The notes beneath the pieces were generated by a model. The model searched no databases. It saw only the letters and a program-made list of their open reading frames with translations, and was not told where the DNA came from. Made by a program: the position numbers and the translations under genes. Shown here piece after piece: positions 4,537 to 5,216 of a DNA stretch of 64,000 nucleotides. Each line of letters opens with the position of its first letter. The first letter of the stretch is position 1. The stretch lies in assembly GCF_053078305.1 (NCBI RefSeq), contig NZ_CP166879.1. One strand, 5' to 3'.

Positions 4537-4740
4537 TCAGTTTGCAGATGCAGTGGGTCTGATGGTAATTTCGGTTGTATCAACGCTTTCGGGAGATTCA
4601 ATAATATGCCTTACCGCACGGGCAATATCCGCAGGTTGAAGTGCAACAGAACGGTAGGCGTCCATTGCCTTCATGGTTTCCACATGGGTAATGGTTGAAG
4701 CCAGTTCACTTTCGACAACGCCAGGATTTACGCAGGTCAC
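4537..4740 (-). pseudogene. 3' fragment of a short-chain dehydrogenase/reductase gene
   Basis: 67-aa ORF ...VNPGVVESELASTITHV...QPADIARAVRHIIESPESVDTTEITIRP resembles an SDR C-terminus; no N-terminal Rossmann region. Confidence 0.5.
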
Positions 4741-4808
4741 ACGGATTTTCGAGCTTTCCTGCCGTAAGCCATCAGAAATAGCCCGTACTGCAAATCAGGC
4801 AGCGTGAA

Positions 4809-5216
4809 ATGGTCGTTGCCTCTCCCTCCTATCTCGCAGCCAACAGCACACCTGTTCATCCGCGTGAACTTGTGAATCATAAGTGTATCGGCTGGCGTCA
4901 ATCCCCGGATGTTGCGCCTTATCGCTGGCCATTTGAAGAAAACGGGAGAGCTTTCGACCTTGCGATTGAACCACAGATTACGACTAATGATCTGCGTCTG
5001 ATGTTGAGGCTGGCTCTTGCCGGCGGAGGAATAACAATTGCCACTCAGGAAACTTTCAGGCCGTATATTGAAAGCGGTAAGCTTGTATCTCTGCTTGATG
5101 ACTTTCTTCCACAATTTCCGGGCTTCTATCTGTATTTCCCACAGCGTCGCAATATTGCACCAAAGCTCCGCGCCCTGATTGACCACGTCAAGGAATGGCG
5201 GCAGCAATTGGCTTAA
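4809..5216 (+). pseudogene. C-terminal fragment of a LysR-type regulator (5' truncated)
   Basis: 135-aa ORF resembles only the LysR substrate-binding domain (…LRLALAGGGITIATQETFRPYIESGKLVSLLDDF…); no HTH domain upstream; 5' ends of this and the SDR fragment face each other. Confidence 0.55.

Follow-up and report, generated by a model that had tools for sequence, protein, structure and literature searches.

A 1,041-bp deletion scar in a divergent SDR-LysR gene pair beside the thrW island of Escherichia coli

Here we describe a pair of facing gene fragments on the flank of the Escherichia coli thrW island that is, with high confidence, a non-functional scar: one apparently recent 1,041-bp deletion in a divergent SDR-LysR gene pair, probably sealed by homology-independent joining and carried by a small set of strains. 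The ancestral locus, just outside the thrW att site, encoded a 240-aa SDR family oxidoreductase on the minus strand and, across a promoter spacer of 98 bp, a 299-aa LysR-type protein on the plus strand, probably the regulator of the SDR gene. One deletion took the spacer together with the first 155 SDR codons and the first 160 regulator codons, leaving two promoterless 3' fragments joined tail-outward; the resulting scar would then have passed, by descent or by transfer, to the few strains that have it. The fragments are a case of ordinary pseudogenisation in the decay of the chromosomal backbone, and both are already flagged as pseudogenes by RefSeq/PGAP.

The DNA analysed, referred to below as the window, is a stretch of 64,000 nucleotides that represents the E. 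coli chromosomal segment around the tRNA-Thr(CGU) gene thrW; the SDR and LysR fragments, here SDR' and LysR', lie directly outside its left thrW att repeat. Intact alleles were sought by megablast of window positions 4000-5600 against 5,426 complete E. coli genomes, from which all counts given below are drawn, and were recognised where the query split into two collinear matches lying about 1 kb further apart than in the window. Annotated, intact divergent SDR-LysR pairs are present in E. coli C and in strain 23CRST011, and these served as references. Features and their coordinates are collected in Table 1.

Table 1. Features of the SDR/LysR scar, its intact reference allele, the thrW island boundaries and the Flag-2 scar. 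Positions are those of the window; locus numbers denote 23CRST011 (L001), the K-12-type flank (L002), E. coli C (L003), Res13-Sevr-PER07-33 (L004) and ARS-C301 (L006, L007).
Feature	Position	Strand	Extent or basis
SDR family oxidoreductase, 3' fragment (SDR')	4537..4795	minus	85 aa + stop = residues 156-240 of 240
SDR/LysR deletion junction	4795..4796		base-level comparison with both E. coli C breakpoints
LysR-type transcriptional regulator, 3' fragment (LysR')	4796..5216	plus	139 aa + stop = residues 161-299 of 299
CATAA, right breakpoint of the K-12-type deletion inside LysR'	4878..4882		three-way alignment of L002 (3966-4045) vs L004
Intact SDR family oxidoreductase		minus	723 bp, 240 aa; E. 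coli C / 23CRST011 annotation
Intact LysR family regulator		plus	900 bp, 299 aa; E. coli C / 23CRST011 annotation
Partial thrW 3' end and flank, att direct repeat, left island boundary	5326..5388	minus	63 bp, 96.8% identical to 51229-51291
thrW, intact tRNA-Thr(CGU), other island boundary	51246..51321	minus	ARAGORN and repeat comparison
dinB	60632-61687		adjoins the Flag-2 scar
lafU' 3' fragment	61758..62526	minus	about 769 of 924 nt; alignment to intact lafU of ARS-C301 (L007 8724-9647)
Flag-2 deletion junction	62524..62526		three-way alignment
lfhA' (Flag-2 FlhA homologue), 3' fragment	62524..64000, cut by window end	plus	about 390 nt of the 5' end gone; alignment to intact flhA of ARS-C301 (L006 2620-4713)

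BLAST comparison with the intact-pair genomes resolved the locus into two collinear blocks separated by a gap of 1,041 bp (E. coli C) or nominally 1,044 bp (23CRST011); every match had E = 0, so the pattern is not due to chance. The 1,041 bp missing relative to E. coli C comprise 464 bp of SDR 5' coding sequence, the 98-bp spacer across which the intact genes are divergently transcribed, and 479 bp of LysR 5' coding sequence. Its end points in E. coli C are L003 4959|4960 and 6000|6001, corresponding to 3585235/3585236 and 3586276/3586277 of NZ_CP020543.1, and in the window the two remnants abut at 4795|4796 with their 5'-truncated ends facing each other. An earlier note, made from the bases alone, had described an SDR 3' fragment facing a LysR C-terminal fragment and had proposed a deletion of both promoters and both N-termini. 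Its coordinates proved exact, and the comparison with intact pairs that it recommended identified a single contiguous loss that includes the spacer and both 5' parts; 385 of the 5,426 genomes, O157:H7, O145:H28 and E. coli C among them, retain the deleted segment itself at 80% coverage or more. The note's own alternative, that the fragments are parts of intact genes read in other frames, is contradicted by the reading frames: bases 4795-4797 form TGA on the minus strand, a stop in the SDR frame created by the junction itself, and the LysR frame has a stop upstream of the fragment. With a 201-bp probe across the junction, one-piece matches of 99.5-100% identity were obtained in 24 of the 5,426 genomes, and the identical junction in 24 independent complete genomes shows that it is no assembly artefact.

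The junction is blunt: its bases fit both E. coli C breakpoints exactly, and these share no base and no microhomology. An apparent 3-bp filler, CAG, seen at the junction against 23CRST011 was rejected as allelic; E. coli C and O157:H7 genomes have CAG at this position, so the junction is clean. In the intact allele, a search of the 30 bp on either side of each breakpoint gave no direct or inverted repeat of 6 bp or longer, which leaves slipped-mispairing and hairpin-mediated models unsupported. Over its last 600-800 bp the left flank matches the intact references at no more than 96-97% identity, so that the breakpoints of the true ancestor may have had 1-2 bp of microhomology. The blunt, homology-free junction argues against slipped-strand or RecA-mediated recombination, and suggests that the ends left by a break were joined illegitimately, independently of homology, or that an exchange of the topoisomerase type took place, although one junction cannot reveal the enzyme or the mechanism and a two-step history would leave a blunt junction too.

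Such a two-step history could involve insertion sequences: an IS would have entered the SDR-LysR region, generated adjacent deletions in both directions and later been lost, leaving a homology-free junction. IS elements have been active at this locus, E. coli C carrying IS629/IS3 fragments and a group II intron just to the left of the SDR gene, and in some O157:H7 genomes the deleted segment is split at 121/122. Furthermore, a published survey of Flag-2 names transposition among the main causes of en bloc deletions (PMC6993521). Against this route, neither a remnant nor an inverted-repeat end of an IS, nor a target duplication, is present at the junction, the breakpoints of the scar are not shared by any of the partial alleles listed here, and more events are needed than for one deletion. 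We therefore consider the IS route improbable, and retain a single homology-independent deletion as the preferred explanation.

The partial alleles were found in the O157:H7 strains NZRM4165 and F6321 and in record NZ_OZ547043.1; two are split at 121/122, and the third retains only the first 295 bp of the segment. This pattern suggests additional, independent disruptions of the pair, which in O157:H7 would probably be IS insertions.

The SDR remnant matches the tail of the E. coli C enzyme (residues 156-240) at 84 of its 85 amino acids, and this identity, together with collinear flanks in both E. coli C and 23CRST011, establishes it as orthologous to the full-length SDR at the same locus. It has lost both hallmarks of the family. 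The Rossmann cofactor motif GASSGIG (GxxxGxG, NAD(P)-binding) occupies residues 9-15 of the intact protein, far upstream of the first retained residue, and the catalytic YxxxK, present as YCASK at residues 151-155, lies immediately before the breakpoint. The intact protein scores 183.6 bits against Pfam adh_short over profile positions 1-191 of 195, compared with 16.3 bits for SDR', over positions 154-191 only and below the cut-off of 26.6; the fragment is thus a remnant of an SDR gene and not an SDR. Loss of the cofactor-binding motif and of the catalytic Tyr and Lys makes it non-functional. In Res13-Sevr-PER07-33, which carries the same scar, PGAP annotates it as a pseudogene, 'incomplete; missing N-terminus'.

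The LysR remnant (translated from 4797-5213) is identical at 139 of 139 amino acids to residues 161-299 of the E. coli C regulator; it is orthologous to the full-length LysR-type transcriptional regulator (LTTR) at the same locus and falls into a 90% cluster with 299-aa proteins. The intact regulator covers Pfam HTH_1 completely (profile positions 1-60 of 60, residues 5-64) and LysR_substrate from 4 to 207 of 209. It scores 161 bits against YafC, the nearest named NCBIfam model, where the cut-off is 470, and so is not a member of any named equivalog. In LysR', a Pfam search gave no HTH_1 match, and LysR_substrate is matched only over positions 81-207 (80 bits), which means that the effector-binding domain is also incomplete, its first 80 positions being gone. 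With the DNA-binding domain lost, the fragment is non-functional as a regulator. PGAP again calls it a pseudogene, 'missing N-terminus', in Res13-Sevr-PER07-33.

An internal Met codon at 4809 opens a 135-aa ORF (4809-5216) within LysR', and it might be asked whether this ORF is kept as a stand-alone effector-binding protein, acting for example as a ligand sink or as a dominant-negative partner of paralogous LysR regulators. Its start is an in-frame ATG, the retained sequence is unchanged from intact alleles at every residue, and a C-terminal remnant of the same gene persists in about half of all E. coli. Between the K-12-type remnant and intact alleles pN/pS is about 0.2, a value derived from only 7-8 differences. 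For the retained LysR codons of the scar, Nei-Gojobori counts against intact alleles gave 0-1 nonsynonymous and 0-5 synonymous differences; with 0-8 differences in all such comparisons, which leave out L004, the counts are too few to tell neutrality from constraint, and the pN/pS estimate in part reflects the time before the deletions. A recent deletion accounts for the low divergence. In addition, the native promoter was deleted, and a promoter and terminator scan of 4300-5520 found no promoter in either fragment. The sole promoter-like site in that interval, 4341-4314, lies outside both fragments, and a single site, fewer than in shuffled sequences, gives no sign of a new promoter. Since the promoter is gone, no substitute was found in the scan and the domain lacks its first half, expression of the retained effector-binding half is unlikely; the PGAP pseudogene call points the same way. 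We regard a stand-alone protein as highly unlikely, and there is equally little reason to expect that the C-terminal half would have survived two independent truncations through expression of its own, under selection as a small protein that binds a ligand or acts in a dominant-negative way. On 77 contigs the exact 135-aa ORF appears in the database as 'LysR substrate-binding domain-containing protein', and residual ORFs of the scar are also deposited under 'hypothetical protein ECDG_00062 [E. coli B185]'; strain TUM18780 likewise has exactly matching deposited ORFs.

For the preferred reading, a non-functional scar, the same codon counts bear on its age. The deletion appears to be recent, because the retained codons are essentially unchanged and there has been no visible decay since.

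The earlier note had placed the scar at the flank of an island. That location is correct, but the scar is independent of the island beside it. Between the two thrW repeats lies an island of about 46 kb, whose first gene encodes a tyrosine integrase (5518-6873); at the left repeat ARAGORN found no complete tRNA within 5326-5388. Aberrant integrase activity during integration or excision of this island could in principle have removed adjacent sequence, and the scar does lie close by, with the att repeat about 110 bp and the integrase gene about 300 bp away. Neither breakpoint touches the att repeat, however, the distance being 531 bp and more, and no att-like sequence occurs at the breakpoints. 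Scar and island also assort independently. Res13-Sevr-PER07-33 shares the flank and the scar (about 99% identity over window positions 1-5390) but from the att repeat onwards carries another island, one that lacks this integrase; OkiPb01714 carries the island of the window at 99.7% identity beside a K-12-type flank; and in 23CRST011 an intact SDR-LysR pair stands beside the same integrase. No complete E. coli genome was found that combines the island of the window with the scar at near-identity over 3000-15000. Independent assortment largely refutes an origin as a by-product of the island, which we judge exceedingly unlikely. The occurrence of the scar with different islands, and its position about 110 bp outside the att repeat, instead identify it as decay of the chromosomal backbone, not as an island event.

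Several other features of the island and its flank were recorded. By comparison with OkiPb01714, the integrase is followed by DUF4942, a CbtA/CbeA toxin-antitoxin pair, RadC, antirestriction genes, Ag43, a methyltransferase/helicase pair, and orphan VENN-motif (CDI-type) toxin/immunity modules. In the flank, a short plus-strand ORF at about 3618-3719 is the counterpart of a further gene fragment that PGAP annotates as 'small membrane protein YkgR, incomplete, missing N-terminus' in both 23CRST011 and Res13-Sevr-PER07-33; OkiPb01714 has an intact ykgR elsewhere, near ykgM/ykgO. On the minus strand, 4094-4366 encodes a 90-aa ORF with a hydrophobic, signal-peptide-like N-terminus, annotated as 'hypothetical protein' in related genomes and matching no Pfam or NCBIfam model. 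In E. coli C this ORF is cut by an IS3/IS629 and group II intron insertion. Among the 24 records with the scar, NZ_CP104634.1 (30,475 bp, strain AHM21C2872I) is a replicon-level record and not a chromosome; rather than a plasmid, it may be a chromosomal contig that was left unplaced.

Taken together, these comparisons distinguish at least three states of the thrW hotspot flank in E. coli: the intact pair, the 1,041-bp scar and a larger, K-12-type deletion. These states could be useful as lineage markers, and they identify the LysR pseudogene beside CP4-6 in K-12 as the remnant of a gene that O157:H7, O145:H28, E. coli C and others have kept whole. Beyond annotation hygiene the significance of the scar is small, and no new system or mechanism is indicated. 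Our search of the literature on yagP and thrW found nothing specific to the 1,041-bp SDR-LysR deletion.

A LysR-type regulator gene transcribed divergently from an enzyme gene across a short spacer is the classic layout of a regulator/target module. The intact allele conforms to this layout, with an LTTR gene divergent from an enzyme gene and, in the 98-bp spacer, the expected place of both promoters and of the LTTR binding site; the LysR gene is the probable regulator of the neighbouring SDR. In contrast to such modules in general, that of the window allele has been destroyed.

A close relative of the scar is the K-12-type deletion of the same regulator. In K-12, the LysR-fragment pseudogene, called yagP in the annotation of that strain, neighbours intF and the thrW pseudo-att site of prophage CP4-6. 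It is a remnant of the very same gene, aligning to window positions 4878-5388 at 96.9% identity over the C-terminal coding part and the att repeat, and it too bears the annotation 'LysR substrate-binding domain-containing protein, missing N-terminus'. The end points of the two deletions differ. On the right, the K-12-type breakpoint is 82 bp deeper into the LysR gene, and on the left it falls just after paoD, so that about 5.1 kb more is gone than in the scar (an MFS transporter, an alpha/beta hydrolase, a second LysR gene, the ykgR-like fragment, the 90-aa ORF and the SDR). The K-12-type junction, between the paoD 3' flank and the LysR remnant, shows 5 bp of microhomology (CATAA), whereas the scar has none. 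The K-12-type state occurs in genomes with K-12-like CP4-6 content, and a 241-bp probe across the paoD|LysR' junction matched over its full length in 2,684 of the 5,426 genomes, as against 24 for the scar. As a separate deletion with its own breakpoints, it demonstrates that this regulator gene has been cut short on at least two independent occasions.

At the other end of the window lies a second pair of facing fragments, lafU' and lfhA', for which the earlier note had claimed the architecture of the SDR/LysR scar and an origin in the known Flag-2 deletion. Both claims proved correct: the truncated ends face each other beside dinB, and the junction is the published deletion of the Flag-2 cluster between lfhA and lafU, which is reported to be bordered by direct repeats (PMC6993521, citing Ren et al. 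2005). In the alignment with ARS-C301, the one intact reference, which has the intact cluster, the junction is only an exact 3-bp ATC present in both parental sequences, within an imperfect 12-bp repeat matching at 9 of 12 positions (CTGTTGACAATC vs CTGATGATCATC). The lafU' frame is open across the junction into antisense lfhA, giving an ORF at 61758-62648 (minus) of 296 aa from TTG. In a K-12-serotype genome PGAP annotates a 786-nt 'lafU' CDS that carries no pseudogene flag, though it is 5'-truncated relative to the 924-nt intact gene; in a K-12-lineage genome lfhA' is called a pseudogene, 'missing N-terminus'. The blunt junction of the SDR/LysR scar, the 5-bp microhomology of the K-12-type deletion and the 3-bp match within an imperfect 12-bp repeat at Flag-2 together provide a small, clean set of natural end points of spontaneous deletions.

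The likeness of the SDR/LysR scar to the Flag-2 scar of E. coli and Shigella (the fhiA/mbhA pseudogenes of K-12) is one of architecture: in both, a single internal deletion has left outward-reading 3' fragments with their truncated 5' ends abutting. The likeness does not extend to the type of junction, which at Flag-2 is a short imperfect direct repeat and at SDR/LysR is blunt. The scale of the loss is also different, about 36.3 kb and about 40 genes relative to ARS-C301 compared with 1,041 bp and parts of two genes. At Flag-2 the truncated genes are the terminal genes of outward-reading operons, whereas SDR and LysR formed a divergent, promoter-sharing pair. Finally, the Flag-2 scar is near-fixed, a 2,301-bp probe across its junction matching in one piece in 4,071 of the 5,426 genomes, including O16:H48 (the K-12 serotype) and EDL933, and the SDR/LysR scar is rare. 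The Flag-2 deletion, formed at its short imperfect direct repeat, is more widespread and would be much older than the small, homology-free deletion at the thrW flank.
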